A stretch of DNA of 64,000 nucleotides from Escherichia phage N2, in sequence record ON645936.1. One strand, given 5' to 3'. The position numbers were made by a program, and so were the translations under genes. The notes beneath the pieces are model-generated. The model had not been told where the DNA came from. It saw only the letters and a program-made list of their open reading frames with translations, and made no database searches. Shown here one piece after another: positions 2,047 through 53,600 of the stretch; position 1 is the first letter of the stretch; every line of letters starts with the position of its first letter.

Positions 2047-2901
2047 TCACAATGAAGAAAATTCTTTAACTAAAGCCTGTAATGAAGCCTCTATTGGATA
2101 TCCATTCTTAACTAACATTTTCCTAAACATCACATGTTTAGGACGATTATATGATATCCACAATTCATACAATTTATCTTTATTATCCCAATGATAGCCT
2201 TTTCGTCGAGATGCTATATGAGCTTTTCTAATCTCCGGATTTTTCCAACTAGCAGCTACTGAATTTGATATAGCTATTTTATATTCAGGTTTTGATAAAG
2301 CAGCGCGAACAGCCCTTTGGTGTTTAATTTTATTTTCTTCGTTATTAAACCATTCCCTTGAAGCCATTGAAATTTTTTGTTTTGTTTTAAAATTATTTAA
2401 TCTTTCTTTGTTATCTTTTCTATTTTTTGCTACTGAAAAATATTTTAATGCCCTTTCTCTAGCAGCATTTCTATTTTGCGGATTTGAATAATACTGTTGA
2501 AGCCTTTTTGATATTGTGTCACTTACATCTTGTTTTATAAAACTATATTCAGCAGCTATTAAATCAACTTCGGCTAAAGATAAATTTTTATATGTTTTTC
2601 CTGACATCATTCTATTTAAAGCATTTAGCATTTTTCCATTTTTACCTTTTGCTAATAAGAAATGTGCTTTGAAATGATTGAAATGACTTAAATTAACTAA
2701 ATTCCATGTAGATTTTAAATATTCAGGAAATATTGATTTAGGAAGCACGTGATGTGCTTCCGTTTTACCTGGAGTTTTAACAGTTGAATTCATAGAAATA
2801 AAATTAATGTAAGACTTGGCGTCTTCTTCGCTCAACACTAATTTTTCAACTAATTCCTTTATTAAAAATTCATCATTAATATCAAGTTTAAAATTCTTCA
2901 C
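2047..2901 (-). CDS. HNH homing endonuclease (Mob-like), inserted between genes 47 and 46
   Basis: 284 aa; GTG start with AAGGA 8 nt upstream; HNH motif EAHHVLPKS...N...H; C-terminal WKNPEIR-type repeats. Confidence 0.7.
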   Translation of the reverse strand: MKNFKLDINDEFLIKELVEKLVLSEEDAKSYINFISMNSTVKTPGKTEAHHVLPKSIFPEYLKSTWNLVNLSHFNHFKAHFLLAKGKNGKMLNALNRMMSGKTYKNLSLAEVDLIAAEYSFIKQDVSDTISKRLQQYYSNPQNRNAARERALKYFSVAKNRKDNKERLNNFKTKQKISMASREWFNNEENKIKHQRAVRAALSKPEYKIAISNSVAASWKNPEIRKAHIASRRKGYHWDNKDKLYELWISYNRPKHVMFRKMLVKNGYPIEASLQALVKEFSSL

Positions 2902-3104
2902 AAAAGATTCCTTTTAATGTATCTTTTAGACCATTCTATCATATCATCATAATCTAAAAAGTATTCATCAAATTCAGCCATGCAAACAACACCTTGTGCT
3001 GCTTTTGATGTGATATAAATTATTCCAACATATCTAGAATCTTCTTCGGTGTAATCAATATTTGCTATGAATTCATCGTTAATGTCAAATGTCGAAAACT
3101 TCAC
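2898..3104 (-). CDS. hypothetical small acidic protein
   Basis: ORF 2898-3161; likely GTG start at 3104 with AAGGA Shine-Dalgarno; N-terminus VKFSTFDINDEF mirrors the HNH N-terminus. Confidence 0.35.
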   Translation of the reverse strand: MKFSTFDINDEFIANIDYTEEDSRYVGIIYITSKAAQGVVCMAEFDEYFLDYDDMIEWSKRYIKRNLL

Positions 3105-3348
3105 AGTATGCATCCTTAATACAAGATACAGCCATATCTTGTAATGATTTAGGTGTGTCATTATCTAAAATGTTGAAGTTAAAAGATACAGCCCAGTCAG
3201 TGCAGACCGTGACCTTTTTAATACAATTATCTTCAACCTCTAACGGTTCAAACCAATATTCAATAATTTCTTTATGCCCAATATCATCTTTTACTTCACA
3301 TTCAAAATGCTGACTCATCATAACATTTTTAAATTCATCAAAAGTCAT
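3085..3348 (-). CDS. hypothetical protein
   Basis: 87-aa ORF; start overlaps gp47 stop (ATGA coupling). Confidence 0.4.
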   Translation of the reverse strand: MTFDEFKNVMMSQHFECEVKDDIGHKEIIEYWFEPLEVEDNCIKKVTVCTDWAVSFNFNILDNDTPKSLQDMAVSCIKDAYCEVFDI

Positions 3349-4364
3349 TGTGTTGCCTCTACATATAACTGATTTGCATATTGAATAAGTGCTTCGCGAT
3401 CAGAATCAGTGATGTCTGGAATTGCATTAATGTATTCTTCCATCAACGTCTGAAGAGATTGAACTTCAACTTCTTCGCTATCATCTGACTCGACAGAGTT
3501 ATCAATCTTTGACACAACTCGTAATGAATGCACAACTTTTTCTAGTTCAGATTCGAACTTCGTTAGATTTTTGTCTACCTCAGTTACTATAACACGCACT
3601 GATAGATTTGTAAAATCTTTATAGTCAATTTTTCCCTTAAATGGATACTGAATTCGACGATGCCAGGTAGTGTTGTTTGGAATAAATTCCATTCGTTCTG
3701 TTTCTGTATCAAACATCCAGAACCCACGAGAGTCATTCTCGTCACCTGCAGTTAGTGTCCATGGTGTCCCAATATATCTGACGTTAGCAGCCTCAGAGAT
3801 AGTATGGAAGTGACCAGACCACACCTCTTTATAAGTCTTAAGGAAATCAGGTTCAAGACCGTGAGATTTCATTCCTTTATAAAAATAAAATCCATTCAAC
3901 TCCCAGTGACCAACACAAAAAGAAGCAGATGAAGTTTTGATGTGTTCAAGAATTTCACCAGTATTTTCTTCGCACATCCAAGGAATTAAATCAATCAAAC
4001 ATCCGTCAAAATCTACTGTAGTAGGCTTATCATATACTTTAACATTAGGATATTTAGCCAAAAGCTCAGTAGAGGCATTTGGATGCATTACATTTTTATA
4101 GTGGAGATCGTGATTTCCTACAATAGTATGTAATGTGATTCCAACGTCATCAAGCATTTGAACTATTTCGCGAGCAAACTCCATAGTTTTATGCGTGATC
4201 GCTTTTCGCACATCAAAAATATCACCATATTGAATCCATACAGTAATTCCGTTTTTCTTAGAATATTCTATCGCTTGCTTAATTCCATCAATTTGAATAC
4301 CGCGAATCCACTCATCATCAGCTTTAACGCCTAAATGCCAATCACCTAAATTTAAAATTTTCAT
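3345..4364 (-). CDS. 47: recombination endonuclease subunit gp47 (Mre11/SbcD-like phosphoesterase)
   Basis: 339 aa; metallophosphatase motifs GDWHLG, GDIFD, GNHD; matches T4 gp47. Confidence 0.9.
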   Translation of the reverse strand: MKILNLGDWHLGVKADDEWIRGIQIDGIKQAIEYSKKNGITVWIQYGDIFDVRKAITHKTMEFAREIVQMLDDVGITLHTIVGNHDLHYKNVMHPNASTELLAKYPNVKVYDKPTTVDFDGCLIDLIPWMCEENTGEILEHIKTSSASFCVGHWELNGFYFYKGMKSHGLEPDFLKTYKEVWSGHFHTISEAANVRYIGTPWTLTAGDENDSRGFWMFDTETERMEFIPNNTTWHRRIQYPFKGKIDYKDFTNLSVRVIVTEVDKNLTKFESELEKVVHSLRVVSKIDNSVESDDSEEVEVQSLQTLMEEYINAIPDITDSDREALIQYANQLYVEATQ

Positions 4365-16338: not shown

Positions 16339-16656
16339 TTACGCTTGGTCATTTTCTTCTCTCTCAAATCGGTGTTTGCAATGACGGCATTTATATTCAA
16401 GTTCCGGTTTACGCCAGTTAATCAATTGGACCTGTTCAGTACCGCATTTTGGGCAGTTCGGAACATTCTTAGAAGCCCTTTCGCGGCGTTCAACCATAAC
16501 CATAATGGCATCCCAAGCAGGAGGTTTAAAGTCTAGATCGTCACAACCATGAATCTTTCCACGCATTTCTAGATCGTCTTCTTCACCAGCCATAATAGTT
16601 TTAATTAGACTAGAATTACTTGAAGCTGCAATATCTTCTAATAAGCGCTTTTTCAT
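16339..16656 (-). CDS. hypothetical protein with C-terminal zinc-ribbon (CPKCG...CRHC)
   Basis: 105-aa ORF with two CxxC pairs. Confidence 0.45.
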
Positions 16657-17582
16657 TTCAATACCTCAATAGCATTACGTAAACCATTTGCTTTTGCATT
16701 AAGAGCTTTTAACAATTTAGTGTGTTCGGCAATCTGGGCTTCAACTTCAATCAAACGAGCATTGAGATATTCGCGTTCTTCGCTCAGGTTATCAACCTTT
16801 TCTACTTTAGGTTCTTTTACAACTGGCTTATATGTATTAGGATTCTTCAGTTTAATTAGAATGCGTGAACTGTATAACATTGAACCATTATCTTCGGTTT
16901 CGTCATACATTTCCACTACGTCCATCATCTCCACCATCGTGCAGAGTTTATAAGACAACGAACGAATAGTTTTGTTATGCTTATTAATTTCTCTAGCTGT
17001 CATGGTGCCGAGATTACGTGAGTAATAATAAGGAACCTGGATATTAATTAATACTGATGAACCACCTGGCTTGTGTGTTACTTCATCAGCAATAACCCAG
17101 TCCTTAACATGAACTGTATTTGTACGGTCATCGCCCGCAGTAAATAGTTTACGAGCATGCTTAAAAAGCATATTCACTTGGTCATTGAATTGACAAGCAA
17201 ATTTATCAGCAAATTTAGTTTCAGGAATGGTAGATAACCAATCAGCTAAATGGGTCTTTTTAACATCGTTAACAATAGTAAATTCAACCAAATCGGTTAT
17301 AGATGTCGCAGATTTAATGAAGCTCGGCTTCATAAAGTTTTTAATGTTATCACTAGCTACAGTAGAAGATAACAGACGAGAACGTTTAAACCATTGAAGC
17401 AAATTGCCTAACGAATGAGAATAAGCGTTTTGAGTATCTTTACAGATATGATTTTCCTGGCCAACATATTGAAAGAAATCACGAAGAATATTATTGATTA
17501 CTGCTCTGTGCCCAATCTGATAATTACGGTGTTTAGTAATAAGACTATCAAAATAATCAATATAATGTTTACGAGTTTTCAT
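16653..17582 (-). CDS. hypothetical protein with C-terminal coiled-coil
   Basis: 309-aa ORF. Confidence 0.5.
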   Translation of the reverse strand: MKTRKHYIDYFDSLITKHRNYQIGHRAVINNILRDFFQYVGQENHICKDTQNAYSHSLGNLLQWFKRSRLLSSTVASDNIKNFMKPSFIKSATSITDLVEFTIVNDVKKTHLADWLSTIPETKFADKFACQFNDQVNMLFKHARKLFTAGDDRTNTVHVKDWVIADEVTHKPGGSSVLINIQVPYYYSRNLGTMTAREINKHNKTIRSLSYKLCTMVEMMDVVEMYDETEDNGSMLYSSRILIKLKNPNTYKPVVKEPKVEKVDNLSEEREYLNARLIEVEAQIAEHTKLLKALNAKANGLRNAIEVLK

Positions 17583-17590
17583 GGTGTTCC

Positions 17591-18479
17591 TTAAGATTTA
17601 AGTAAATCAACAATTTTAATTAACTTTTCACGCTCAGATTTAGCTTTACTACTCAATCCAGATAGTCTGAAAATTTCATCATCATATTGTTGAATAGAAA
17701 TATTCAGCTCTTCAATTTGCTTATTAAAATAATCAATTTGTTCAGAATGTTTTTCATTACTATGAACCGGTACAGGTTTTGTAGGCAATTTAGTTGAACT
17801 GGATTCATCCGGGCGATAAATTAAAATACAACTTGAACCAATCGGACATTTAGCACCAGACACATATTCTAATGTTCCGGCTTCTTTTAAAATTTCAAAA
17901 GCTAAACAGAGATGATGCCCCATATTAACATAATCTGTAGAGCGAGCTCTGACGTAATAATCATCTCCATGAGTACTAAATTTAAAGCATTTAAGGTCTT
18001 CTGTATTATTAGTTTTAAAAATCATTTGTTTATCTAGACCTTTAGCTAATCGAGCGCCCAATGCTAATAATCGTCGTTGATTTTCCCACAAATCTGCGAT
18101 CATTTGGTCAAATGATAATTTCGGCATTAGTCGACCATAAAGGTCATATCCTTTATTATAATTGCGAAGAATTTCACTCGCGTTAATGCGAGACAACGCT
18201 CCAATTTTATTAAGGGCTTTCATGATGCGATTAGATAAAAGCATTCCAGACCCGTTTGTTCGTTGTAAATGTTTTTCTAATCCAAATCCAATATCAACTT
18301 TAAACTTATCTAAAATTTCGGCGTGAACATCTTTATCAATAACATTTAAATTTAGTACTGGGTTAAATTTATGAAAAAATTTATCTGACTCGTCGTGTTG
18401 AAGTACAGTCCATTCATTTGATTTTTTTATTAACTAAAGATTTAATTACTGCATTGACATTATTAATTGCTACTGACAT
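17591..18479 (-). pseudogene. hypothetical gene interrupted by a +1 frameshift in an A7 run (or sequencing error)
   Basis: ATG at 18479 sits 8 nt after the upstream stop and reads 21 codons to a stop; the 78 codons upstream of the 217-aa ORF are open and protein-like with no start; the frames join if the A7 tract (18422-18428) loses one A. Confidence 0.45.
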
Positions 18480-18486
18480 ATTTTCC

Positions 18487-18894
18487 TCACTCAATTTCAA
18501 TTTTACTAAATACACAGAATATGATTGAACAGACTACATAAGCACCGCACACAGATTGAACTAATACCATCCCAAAGAACCAAACAATATTATCAAACAG
18601 TGTCTGTTTTACGTCGAAAGGACGTAAACTTACAGTAATATTATCACCTTTTTCTATTGAAGAATACATCTCTGGGGAAATATATTCACTAAATCTATAA
18701 CCGTCTTTGAGTTCATATACAGCAATAAACGATAAACTAGACCCTTTTCCTTGTGTTCCTGTGATAGTATTAACTACAGTAACATCATAATCTTTATAAT
18801 GCATATAATCATTAATTGCGTAATAACCGTATGCAATTGCTATACATAAACAACATATCAATAAATTCAATCTTTTAATTATCAACTGTTTCAT
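18487..18894 (-). CDS. hypothetical membrane protein
   Basis: 135 aa; hydrophobic segments at both N- and C-terminus. Confidence 0.5.
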   Translation of the reverse strand: MKQLIIKRLNLLICCLCIAIAYGYYAINDYMHYKDYDVTVVNTITGTQGKGSSLSFIAVYELKDGYRFSEYISPEMYSSIEKGDNITVSLRPFDVKQTLFDNIVWFFGMVLVQSVCGAYVVCSIIFCVFSKIEIE

Positions 18895-19921: not shown

Positions 19922-20641
19922 TTAGGATTCTTCTAAATGTCTTTTCTGAAAAGTTGATACCATACTACGATACGGTTCATTTGGATATCCGTGTTTTATA
20001 GCTTCCTTTGTAAATTTTCTCCATCCATATTTAGTTTCTTTCCAAAGCTCGAATAATTCATCTTCATACTGCCATATAGTTAAATGAGAACGCTTTGCAG
20101 CTTTAATTCCATTAATATGCTTTTCTTTTACTGCAGGATTGCTTAGTTTCTTTTTAATAATATTACTAACTTTTCTAACAAAAACTGGGTCCTTATATCG
20201 TTGCGAAGTTTTTATTGAAGTGTTTAATTTAGCTTCCGGCGTGGATGTAACCTCTTTCATCTTTTTCTTCATATGCTGTATATGATTAGGATTTTTCCAT
20301 AAATTTATAGAATGCTTTTTGCATTTTATCCTAGTTTCATCTGCAACCTTTCCTCCTTCACCCCCGTATGACAGGTTAACACAGTTTTTTCCATATTTCA
20401 ATTTACCTGCCATGATATATAATATTTCAGCTTGTACCATTTTATCATAATTATCAAAAACTTCTAAAACCGTTTTTGATAATATGTGGTCATTTGACAC
20501 TTTTACACGTTCTATATAATTTCCACTACCAACATACGAATCATTGATGTTATTAGTTATATGTCGACCATAATAGTATTTCTTAATACCTGTCTTTAAA
20601 TTTAATATTTCAGTTTTATAGATAGTAAAATATTTTTTCAT
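19922..20641 (-). CDS. GIY-YIG homing endonuclease (Seg-like)
   Basis: 239 aa; YFTIYKTEIL...YYGRH...YVGSG GIY-YIG-like N-terminus and basic C-terminus; 4-nt overlap with the upstream ATPase. Confidence 0.6.
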   Translation of the reverse strand: MKKYFTIYKTEILNLKTGIKKYYYGRHITNNINDSYVGSGNYIERVKVSNDHILSKTVLEVFDNYDKMVQAEILYIMAGKLKYGKNCVNLSYGGEGGKVADETRIKCKKHSINLWKNPNHIQHMKKKMKEVTSTPEAKLNTSIKTSQRYKDPVFVRKVSNIIKKKLSNPAVKEKHINGIKAAKRSHLTIWQYEDELFELWKETKYGWRKFTKEAIKHGYPNEPYRSMVSTFQKRHLEES

Positions 20642-33269: not shown

Positions 33270-33725
33270 TTAAAAGAGGCTGTTCATTATTCGGTAAAGT
33301 GAAGGACCCATCACATATTGCCACTGAGTACGAGGAATAAGAGCAAAAGCATCCATCTCTGGAATCATAACACCATCTTTATTTTCAAAATAAGACTCGC
33401 AATGGCAATTTCTAAACATCTCATGCTCTACTGGAATCGTATAATAAAATAACTGTAAGTCTTTATTACTAGAATATTTAAATACACCTAGGTCTTCTAG
33501 AAGGTCTGGATTATAATTGCTAAAACCAGTCTCTTCTAAACATTCTCTTCGTGCTGCATCTAGTGCGCTTAAATCAGAACTTTCTACACGACCCTTTGGA
33601 ATATCCCAGCGATGGGCCATCATTCCAGGCTTACGAGAACCGGTAACCCGACCCATAAATAAATCTTTATCTTCTGTCATAAAGATAATACCAGCTGATA
33701 ATGTTTTCATTTTAATTTCCTGCAT
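33270..33725 (-). CDS. nudE: Nudix hydrolase NudE
   Basis: 151 aa; Nudix box GRVESSDLSALDAARRECLEETGF. Confidence 0.85.
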   Translation of the reverse strand: MQEIKMKTLSAGIIFMTEDKDLFMGRVTGSRKPGMMAHRWDIPKGRVESSDLSALDAARRECLEETGFSNYNPDLLEDLGVFKYSSNKDLQLFYYTIPVEHEMFRNCHCESYFENKDGVMIPEMDAFALIPRTQWQYVMGPSLYRIMNSLF

Positions 33726-33898
33726 TCAGTAATAAAGTTATTTAAATTTTGAGTATATTTCTTTTCATCAAAAATCTTTTGTTGTCTGCGTAGCCGCCAT
33801 GGCATTTCAATGAACGTGTACCATATCCCAGATAATATTGCTGCTGTAAAAATATTAACAAGTATGGTTAAAAGAATCCAATCTCCTATTCTGTCCAT
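33707..33898 (-). CDS. hypothetical small membrane protein
   Basis: 63 aa with one hydrophobic helix. Confidence 0.4.
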   Translation of the reverse strand: MDRIGDWILLTILVNIFTAAILSGIWYTFIEMPWRLRRQQKIFDEKKYTQNLNNFITECRKLK

Positions 33899-34196
33899 TG
33901 GATTTTTTATAAAAAAAGTAAAATACGAATGATGTCACAGGAAGACTAATAATATACCACAGAATCATAATTTTATCTGTGAACCAATCAGCGTTCGTTA
34001 ACTTAGCGCGACCATTATGAATACACACGAATTTATCATCTGTTGCAGTAGATGGCTTAACTGGTTGATATCCCATTCTAAACTCCCTAATCAGCAAATT
34101 TTTCATATCTTCGGAACAGCCATTCCAGTCAACTCTATCAACTGGAATGCCATCATCCCCATCATCTAAATCATACCAGCGAGTTTTTAAAATCAT
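33855..34196 (-). CDS. hypothetical protein
   Basis: 113-aa ORF. Confidence 0.4.
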   Translation of the reverse strand: MILKTRWYDLDDGDDGIPVDRVDWNGCSEDMKNLLIREFRMGYQPVKPSTATDDKFVCIHNGRAKLTNADWFTDKIMILWYIISLPVTSFVFYFFYKKSNGQNRRLDSFNHTC

Positions 34197-50671: not shown

Positions 50672-53600
50672 CAGTAAAAGCACCTTCAGTCACTAGTCTC
50701 AGAATTTCCAAGTTATCCGCAAATCAGGTGCAAGTACGCTGGGATGACGTTGGTGCTAATTTCTACTATTTTGTAGAAATCGCTGAGACAAAAACAGACT
50801 CGGGGGAAAATCTCCCGAGTAATCAATACAAATGGATTAACTTAGGATATACTGCAAATAACAGCTTCTTTTTTGATGATGCTGATCCGTTAACATCATA
50901 CATTATTAGAGTAGCTACAGCTGCACAAGATTTTGAGCAGTCTGATTGGATTTATACCGAAGAGTTTGAAACTTTTGCTACAAACGCTTATACATTTCAA
51001 AACATGATTGAAATGCAATTAGCTAATAAATTCATTCAGGAAAAATTTACTCTTAATAATTCTGACTATGTCAATTTTAACAATGACACTATAATGGCTG
51101 CATTGATGAATGAATCGTTTCAATTCAGCCCATCATATGTTGATGTTTCATCAATAAGTAATTTTATTATTGGTGAAAATGAGTATCATGAAATACAAGG
51201 TTCTATTCAGCAAGTATGTAAGGATATTAATCGAGTTTATTTGATGGAATCAGAAGGGATTCTATATCTTTTTGAGCGCTATCAGCCTGTAGTTAAAGTA
51301 TCCAATGATAAAGGACAAACCTGGAAAGCTGTAAAGCTCTTCAATGACCGTGTAGGATATCCTTTATCTAAGACAGTATATTACCAATCTGCAAACACAA
51401 CATACGTTCTAGGATACGACAAGATTTTCTATGGCCGCAAATCTACTGATGTTAGATGGTCAGCTGATGATGTCAGATTTAGTTCGCAGGATATAACATT
51501 CGCTAAACTCGGTGACCAATTACATCTAGGATTTGATGTAGAAATTTTTGCCACTTACGCGACTTTACCAGCTAATGTATACCGTATTGCAGAAGCTATT
51601 ACTTGCACCGATGATTACATTTACGTTGTCGCCAGAGACAAAGTTAGATACATAAAAACGAGTAATGCACCTATAGATTCTGATCCATTATCTCCGACAT
51701 ATTCGGAAAGACTTTTTGAACCTGATACAATGACTATAACCGGAAATCCTAAAGCAGTATGCTATAAAATGGATTCTGTCGGTGATAAAGTTTTTGCTCT
51801 TATTATTGGTGAAGTTGAAACATTAAATGCTAATCCTAGAACATCAAAAATAATTGATTCTGTTGATAAAGGAATATATGTTTTAAATCATGACACAAAA
51901 ACGTGGAAAAGAGTTTTTGGCAACACTGAAGAAGAAAGAAGACGTATTCAACCAGGGTATGCGAATATGTCAACTGATGGTAAATTAGTTTCTTTATCAT
52001 CGAGTAATTTTAAATTTTTAAGTGATAACGTTGTTAATGACCCTGAAACTGTGGTGAAATATCAGTTAATCGGTGCTGTTAAATATGAATTTCCTCGTGA
52101 ATGGCTAGCTGATAAGCATTATCATATGATGGCATTTATAGCAGATGAAAAGTCTGATTGGGAAACTTTTACTCCTCAGCCGATGAAATACTACGCTGAA
52201 CCATTCTTTAACTGGTCTAAAAAATCTAACACACGTTGTTGGATAAACAACTCTGATAGGGTTGTAGTAGTTTATGCTGATTTAAAATATACTAAAGTTA
52301 TAGAAAACATTCCTGAAACATCACCAGATAGATTAGTTCATGAATACTGGGATGATGGCGATTGTACGATAGTAATGCCAAATGTTAAATTCACGGGATT
52401 TAAAAAATACGCATCTGGGATGCTTTTTTATAAGTCTTCTGGTGAAATAATTTCTTACTATGATTTTAACTATCGAGTGAGAGACACGGTTGAAATAATT
52501 TGGAAGCCAACTGAAATATTTTTAAAAGCATTTTTACAAAACCAAGAGCGTGAAACTCCTTGGTCCCCGGAAGAAGAGCATGGATTAGCTGATCCTGATT
52601 TAAGACCATTGATTGGCACAATGATGCCTGATTCTTATTTGCTACAGGATTCGAATTTTGAGGCATTTTGCGAAGCATATATTCAGTATCTTTCTGATGG
52701 ATATGGAACTCAGTATAACAATTTACGAAATTTAATTCGTAACAAATATCCACGAGAAGAGCATGCATGGGAATATTTGTGGTCAGAGATATATAAAAGA
52801 AACATTTATTTAAATGCTGACAAACGCGATGCTGTTGCAAGATTTTTCGAATCACGTAGCTATGATTTTTATTCTACTAAAGGAATTGAAGCATCATACA
52901 AATTTCTTTTTAAAGTTCTTTATAATGAAGAGGTTGAAATTGAAATTGAGTCTGGGGCTGGTACTGAATATGATATAATCGTTCAATCTGATTCTTTGAC
53001 TGAAGATTTAGTAGGACAAACGATTTATACAGCTACAGGAAGATGTAATGTTACTTATATAGAAAGAAGCTATTCCAATGGCAAATTGCAATGGACCGTA
53101 ACTATTCATAATCTTTTGGGAAGATTAATTGCCGGTCAAGAAGTTAAAGCAGAAAGACTCCCTAGTTTCGAAGGTGAAATTATTCGCGGGGTTAAAGGAA
53201 AGGATTTGCTTCAAAATAATATAGACTATATTAATAGAAGTAGATCATATTATGTAATGAAAATTAAATCCAATTTACCTTCTTCCCGCTGGAAATCTGA
53301 CGTTATTCGTTTTGTTCATCCAGTAGGATTTGGATTTATAGCAATTACCCTTTTAACAATGTTTATTAATGTTGGTTTAACTCTTAAACACACAGAGACT
53401 ATAATTAATAAATACAAAAACTATAAATGGGATTCTGGATTGCCTACTGAATATGCTGATAGAGTAGCCAAATTGACTCCAACCGGTGAAATTGAGCATG
53501 ATTCAGTAACAGGCGAAGCAATTTATGAACCTGGCCCAATGGCTGGTGTAGAATATCCTCTTCCTGATGACTATAATGCTGAAAATAATAATTCAATATT

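Follow-up and report, generated by a model that had tools for sequence, protein, structure and literature searches.

An apparent A6-to-A7 expansion splits the nrdC.6 gene in a T-even-type phage genome segment

The window analysed here, a stretch of DNA 64,000 nt in length, is a segment of a T4-like (Tequatrovirus) genome that covers roughly gene 45 through gene 16/17, with its early genes on the minus strand. Within the nrdC-mobD block of this segment, an ATG at a well-placed position opens a reading frame that enters a run of seven adenines and closes shortly beyond it, and a second, much longer frame continues on the far side of the run. The locus raises the question of what stands at this position: two short genes, one gene whose product is completed by a programmed change of frame, a gene recently broken by mutation, or an intact gene whose homopolymer was miscounted. 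The change is very probably an unprogrammed homopolymer indel, be it a mutation or a miscall. That the extra A is a genuine and recent replication-slippage mutation in the phage DNA stands at about even chances, and is slightly likelier than a base-calling error.

Anatomy of the split locus

On the minus strand, the ATG (18479-18477) begins 8 nt past the final base of the TGA stop of the upstream gene (18489-18487), and the short frame runs from there through the A7 tract to its own stop, as a preliminary description of this DNA had stated (Table 1). The layout in T4 is alike, with nrdC.6 starting 8 nt past the nrdC.7 stop. The +1 frame that takes over at the run has no ATG, GTG or TTG in its first 63 codons, and its earliest start is the ATG at 18244, which is preceded by a weak GGA only; an ATG at 18417, near the run, sits in the third frame. 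The preliminary description had likewise reported a startless stretch upstream of Met 18244. The stretch exists, and its length is 63 codons rather than the 78 given, a figure that corresponds to the number of residues preceding Met 18244 in the repaired protein. Its further claim that removal of one A would fuse the two frames also held, with a product of 295 aa, not about 297, and the fused product would carry the junction peptide SLVNKKSNEWTVLQ. The 217-aa ORF that begins at Met 18244 is a mechanical ORF and no gene in its own right.

Table 1. Features of the nrdC.6 locus, its neighbours and the second split gene in the window
Feature	Position	Strand	Remarks
Upstream neighbour, nrdC.7-type membrane protein (PF26908), intact	18487..18894	-	ORF and family match
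Shine-Dalgarno-like GAGG	18485..18488	-	overlaps the nrdC.7-type TGA, 5 nt before ATG 18479; read from the sequence
Whole nrdC.6 ortholog (PF26899; phrog_2257)	17591..18479	-	295 aa if one A fewer
Severed N-terminal fragment, 21 codons (MSVAINNVNAVIKSLVNKKIK) plus TGA 18416-18414	18414..18479	-	ORF from ATG 18479
A7 homopolymer (T7 on plus strand)	18422-18428	-	Lys18-Lys19 codons and first base of next codon; site of the extra base
+1 frame, open for 280 codons (residues 20-295)	17591..18433	-	stop at 17593-17591
217-aa ORF from first in-frame ATG	17591..18244	-	would miss about 78 conserved N-terminal residues
Downstream neighbour, nrdC.3/nrdC.4-type (PF26897), intact	16653..17582	-	ORF and family match
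e.2 ortholog, split	33707-34196	-	coding-strand T6 to T7; plus-strand A7 at 33911-33917

Identity of the gene and its run in related phages

The repaired product matches the phrog_2257 profile over residues 1-295, the profile having 303 positions (E = 2.3e-149), and all 105 homolog clusters matched by it carry PF26899 (Phage_T4_Y05B); the copy of Pfam that was searched predates the PF26899 model and gave no match. Full-length similarity to PF26899 and phrog_2257 is found at the locus, as is the position directly downstream of an nrdC.7-type gene that is usual in the family. An uninterrupted reading frame is lacking, since in the window copy A7 replaces A6 and breaks the frame. The window locus is a disrupted, or apparently disrupted, copy of nrdC.6, known in T4 as T4p090 (UniProt Y05B_BPT4, PF26899, phrog_2257). 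It shares with the T4 gene the same genomic position and the same N-terminus, and, once repaired, its product shares more than 90% identity with Tequatrovirus members along the full length. Unlike the T4 gene, the window copy is interrupted by an extra A at codon 19-20; the T4 reference has an in-frame A7+TGATG at the run and a 1-nt deletion of its own near the 3' end. Because the repaired product matches phrog_2257/PF26899 and orthologs carry an intact 888-bp CDS, the split lies beyond what chance would produce.

The NrdC.6 family is restricted to T-even-type phages and is conserved over its full length down to about 40% identity; nrdC.6 is a conserved accessory gene found in these phages only. 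Among 30 aligned family members, M1, S2, I5, N6 and K13 show little or no variation, and the upstream Met is the start in all 30 homologs. With these conserved residues at the N-terminus, ATG 18479 is therefore where the gene genuinely starts, and what the 21-codon ORF encodes is the cut-off front end of a real protein. AlphaFold modelling of a homolog with 94% identity (pLDDT 77.5, pTM 0.65) puts the two lysines specified by the run within the first helix, which is confidently modelled; fold searches returned no informative match. In the literature searched, no mention of nrdC.6 by name was found. Many GenBank and UniRef records label NrdC.6, and indeed the whole nrdC.1-nrdC.11 block, as 'thioredoxin'. 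Pfam, the AlphaFold model and the fold searches gave no support for this label in the sequence or predicted fold of NrdC.6, and it looks like a carry-over from the locus name.

A single intact 888-bp CDS occupies the locus in HY03, sutha, fPS-2 and other phages. A6 and a 295-aa ORF are found in all 13 other loci, from 11 distinct sources, that share the ...AAT(A)nTCAAATGAATGG context, and the string ...GTTAAT-A6-TCAAATGAATGG, present in HY03, sutha, G8, IME537 and seven metagenomic or SRA-derived contigs, is identical to the run context of the window minus one A. No perfect match to an 81-nt stretch of the window was found among 435 related phage records. In-frame run lengths dominate in the best 40 and in 60 evenly sampled rows of these 435, and the window allele is absent from both sets. 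Nor was the allele found in the gene-position collection; IMG/VR contains the A6 pattern and yielded no A7 pattern; and exact look-up of the 217-aa, 33-aa and 113-aa products of the window returned no record anywhere. Since the relatives have A6 and the allele was found nowhere else, the split is a private A6-to-A7 expansion of an ancestrally intact gene. This result upholds the central proposal of the preliminary description, that a +1 shift of frame in A7 divides a single gene, with the closest relatives having exactly A6 and a 295-aa ORF. The orthologs it had asked to be compared are not split at nrdC.6, where split ones would have spoken against its reading. The nearest relatives are only 96-97% identical to the window across the nrdC.6 region, so that a private allele had ample time to arise and is unremarkable.

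Other lengths of the run occur as well. T4, Lv5cm and five T2 records carry a different allele, A7+TGATG, which is in frame. In the A(n)+TGATGAATG allele class, the T2 record LC348380 (A6) and EPIMAM01 (A8) are out of frame relative to the in-frame A7, and in both the annotation has translation restarting at the ATG made by the last A of the run. Three run-length variants of nrdC.6 are each private to one record, namely A7 in the window, A6 in LC348380 and A8 in EPIMAM01. Some of these private variants may be artefacts; for the T2 variant, at least, other data disagree with the record.

The surrounding nrdC block shows further variation among these phages. The window has no nrdC.5 (DUF7235, about 1 kb) in the interval 16653-17593 and carries a single PF26897 gene directly after nrdC.6, as does Yersinia phage fPS-2; SRA-derived contigs that encode the identical 309-aa protein have, between the two genes, nrdC.5 and a further PF26897 paralog. 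An MKTR... N-terminus is common to the PF26897 paralogs and may mediate such deletions. The nrdC.5 gene itself is annotated in two pieces in HY03 (2618-3641) and in one SRA-derived contig (861-1889), making it another accessory gene of this block with recurrent breaks. Between the nrdC.9-type and nrdC.10-type genes of the window lies a 239-aa ORF (19922-20641, minus strand) with a GIY-YIG-like N-terminus of the homing-endonuclease type, which is present in Lv5cm (as 'DNA endonuclease') and IME537 and absent from sutha and fPS-2.

Mutation or miscall

A genuine mutation would have arisen by strand slippage on the coding-strand homopolymer, expanding A6 to A7 by a single base at nrdC.6 codons 18-19. 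Ribosomes initiating at the well-placed ATG 18479 would then terminate after 21 codons, and the remaining 276 codons would offer neither a start codon nor a ribosome-binding site over a stretch of 63 codons. A tract of seven adenines is too short for RNA-polymerase or ribosome slippage to provide meaningful rescue. As written, the window allele would be null. The anatomy of the locus, the A6 of the relatives, the absence of the allele elsewhere and the lack of recoding signals are observed; the presence of the extra base in the phage DNA, the null state of the allele and the dispensability of nrdC.6 for this phage are inferred.

Damage to nrdC.6 is known from three other phages. The gene of the T4 reference (NC_000866, CDS 52066-52893, 275 aa) bears a 1-nt deletion, GAGCTG-ATATTTC, that replaces its last 45 or so codons, including the invariant DDEIFRL C-terminal helix of the family. 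In T2 (PV958097), an in-frame TGA at codon 202 truncates the product to 201 aa, and in Pinarejo an internal deletion that begins right after the A-run has removed most of the gene. Because T4, T2 and Pinarejo were damaged independently, the gene is dispensable at least in laboratory stocks.

The whole window was compared with sutha and Lv5cm, which made about 60 kb comparable and left 4.3 kb uncovered. It contains 70 homopolymers of at least 6 nt, eight of them 7-mers, and two of these eight break a reading frame: the run in nrdC.6 and another in e.2. The latter splits a 162-aa membrane protein into products of 113 aa (33855..34196) and 63 aa (33707..33898). In RB51 and at least 25 other records, e.2 is identical to the window across 121 nt but has T6. 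A T7 is also present in CJY920, in a haplotype only about 94% identical to the window around e.2, and it is therefore an independent recurrence. This record was considered as an arbiter between a real change and an error and was set aside: it is not riddled with homopolymer breaks, and an independent T7 settles nothing. The e.2 gene of the T4 reference (NC_000866, CDS 67652-67960) encodes 102 aa, having A5 where RB51 has A6 and then a stop, and beyond that stop the ancestral frame is regained through a compensating +1 insertion some 76 nt downstream. Two more candidate breaks in the window were examined and rejected. The one at about 37063 (A4 versus A5) precedes a well-placed start (GGAG, 8 nt, ATG) and breaks no gene, and the apparent split of 49.2/49.3 reflects a fusion in Lv5cm, the window being unbroken there.

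Several of these results favour a mutation over a miscall. In the roughly 60 kb compared, nrdC.6 and e.2 are the only frame-broken genes and both are accessory, and the structural block at 44-64 kb is without a broken gene despite holding 22 of the 70 runs. Agreement with relatives extends to 41 of the 43 comparable homopolymers, and the window has no ambiguous bases. Breaks in accessory genes only are the pattern expected if selection filtered the changes. The independent damage to nrdC.6 in T4, T2 and Pinarejo, the independent changes of the e.2 tract in the T4 reference and CJY920, and the rate of +/-1 variants published for T-even homopolymers point the same way. Other results weigh against a mutation: the allele is private and its truncated products are unrecorded, a second private 6-to-7 expansion breaks e.2, and the nrdC.6 run is one base short in LC348380, which means that miscounts or stock-private variants do occur. 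The conservation of the family to about 40% identity also implies that null alleles are selected against in nature.

An overcall of the homopolymer by one base in the consensus, with the phage truly having A6 and an intact nrdC.6, falls somewhat short of even chances. The allele is a singleton when set against the 435 related records, IMG/VR and the gene-position collection, and e.2 supplies a second singleton 6-to-7 expansion. Two events in 70 runs would also fit an error-prone platform, and both frame-breaking runs are among the window's only eight 7-mers. There is even a precedent at the same run, for T2 LC348380 has A6 and five other T2 records have 7; a T2 stock from another laboratory had 7 in 2526 of 2527 Illumina reads, scored as '(T)6->7' against the LC348380 reference. 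That record (LC348380 / NC_054931) resembles the window in having a private one-base difference in this run and an apparently split nrdC.6. The two cases differ in that the odd T2 record is contradicted by independent records and deep reads, whereas the window is known from one consensus sequence. Against an artefact stands the small number of affected runs, 2 of 70, with no essential gene among them. Undercalls were also not seen among the comparable 6-mers, 35 of 36 of which match relatives, the odd one being sutha's. Homopolymer-error-prone platforms usually leave more errors than this, and in both directions. The recent pseudogene and the sequencing error put forward in the preliminary description come out nearly level, the pseudogene slightly ahead.

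Contingency loci, recoding and the meaning of the split

Whichever of the two applies, the event is of an already known kind, an ordinary Streisinger-type slippage frameshift or a base-calling error mimicking one. According to a preprint on T-even phages (Gomez, Barrick and Waters, bioRxiv 10.1101/2025.10.21.683753), T2, T4 and T6 contain 168-191 homopolymers of at least 6 nt, most of which show +/-1 variants at about 3e-4 per run; fast reversion was measured at the agt and rIIA runs, and such runs are framed as phage 'contingency loci'. The tables of this preprint include the nrdC.6 run among the simple repeats of T2 and T4 and give the T4 run as a 7-mer (nt 52-58) that was unchanged in 1546 of 1546 reads from one population (bioRxiv 10.1101/2025.10.21.683753). 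The nrdC.6 run of the window is a homopolymer of at least 6 nt inside an ORF, one criterion for such a locus, and the likeness extends to a +/-1 change and to the accessory nature of the gene. An engineered +1 A in the A6 run of rIIA, as described in that preprint, behaves as does the nrdC.6 change in the window (bioRxiv 10.1101/2025.10.21.683753). The published loci differ from the window in the data at hand, which there comprise reads and reversion and here one consensus sequence.

It is enticing to go further and to regard the nrdC.6 A-run and the e.2 T6/A6 tract as functional on/off contingency loci, with the window as an 'off' variant, but this is improbable. Such loci would act through reversible +/-1 slippage, switching proteins that might be costly on some hosts or sensed by host defence. 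Both tracts show apparently recurrent independent length changes, nrdC.6 has been inactivated recurrently (T4, T2 and Pinarejo), and the TGATG class has a restart ATG after the run, all of which point in this direction. Plain hypermutability or error-proneness under weak selection would account just as well for the recurrence at both tracts.

A programmed role for the run, as a site of +1 ribosomal frameshifting (tRNA-Lys moving from AAA to AAA) or of transcriptional slippage that yields full-length NrdC.6, is very unlikely. The preliminary description had listed programmed frameshifting as an alternative, which the unsplit orthologs lead us to reject. The attraction of the idea is that a P-site tRNA-Lys could pair again without mismatch after a +1 shift on A_AAA_AAA_T and that the +1 product would exactly equal the ortholog sequence ...VNKKSNEWT.... 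This re-pairing is one of the marks of a programmed +1 site; the others, conservation and a stimulator or slow codon, are missing. The arrangement is unconserved, the orthologs examined being all in frame or private variants. The A site holds ATC (Ile), a common codon that is neither a stop nor rare, and the stop follows two codons later; the 15 nt upstream of the run contain no SD-like stimulator, and downstream RNA structure is lacking as well, the sequence folding worse than its shuffled versions (z = +1.95). T4-type phages are transcribed by E. coli RNA polymerase, and at 7 nt the run is below the 8-9 nt or more needed for efficient slippage by this host enzyme. Slippage by E. coli RNA polymerase is undetectable below T7/A8, and no deletion slippage occurs on poly(A) (PMC6260861). 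Selection against A/T runs becomes evident genome-wide from about 9 nt (PMC1088944), and E. coli ribosomes read two consecutive AAA codons without sliding, robust sliding being seen at about A11 (PMC4363877). In prfB-type +1 frameshifting and in the slippage known from T. thermophilus dnaX, IS elements and Shigella mxiE, a slippery homopolymer likewise joins overlapping frames. Unlike those cases, with their runs of 8-9 nt, the window has a shorter run that is unconserved and without stimulators. Programmed frameshifting and slippage are rejected on these three counts: no conservation, no stimulators and too short a run.

Least probable of all is a pair of genuine genes, one for a 21-aa peptide and one for a protein of 217 aa (or longer, from a non-canonical start) with initiation of its own, for although out-of-frame A(n)+TGATG records (LC348380, EPIMAM01) are annotated with a restart after the run, the TCAAATG of the window allele offers no in-frame start close to it (ATG 18417 being in the third frame), the independent downstream start that the preliminary description had named as counter-evidence does not appear within 63 codons free of in-frame ATG, GTG or TTG, the first start thereafter has its weak GGA and loses conserved residues 1-78, the 217-aa product is unrecorded, and all 30 aligned homologs start at the upstream Met.

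For the T-even-type phages, the significance of the split is mostly one of annotation. Rather than two hypothetical proteins, the annotation should show a single disrupted nrdC.6 for the 21-codon and 217-aa ORFs, or a sequence corrected after resequencing, and the 'thioredoxin' label carried by the family has no foundation. Should the extra A be real, the window would add a further natural knockout, which would point to both nrdC.6 and e.2 as dispensable genes, and would contribute a modest data point to the recent idea that homopolymers in the accessory genes of T-even phages act as mutational switches.
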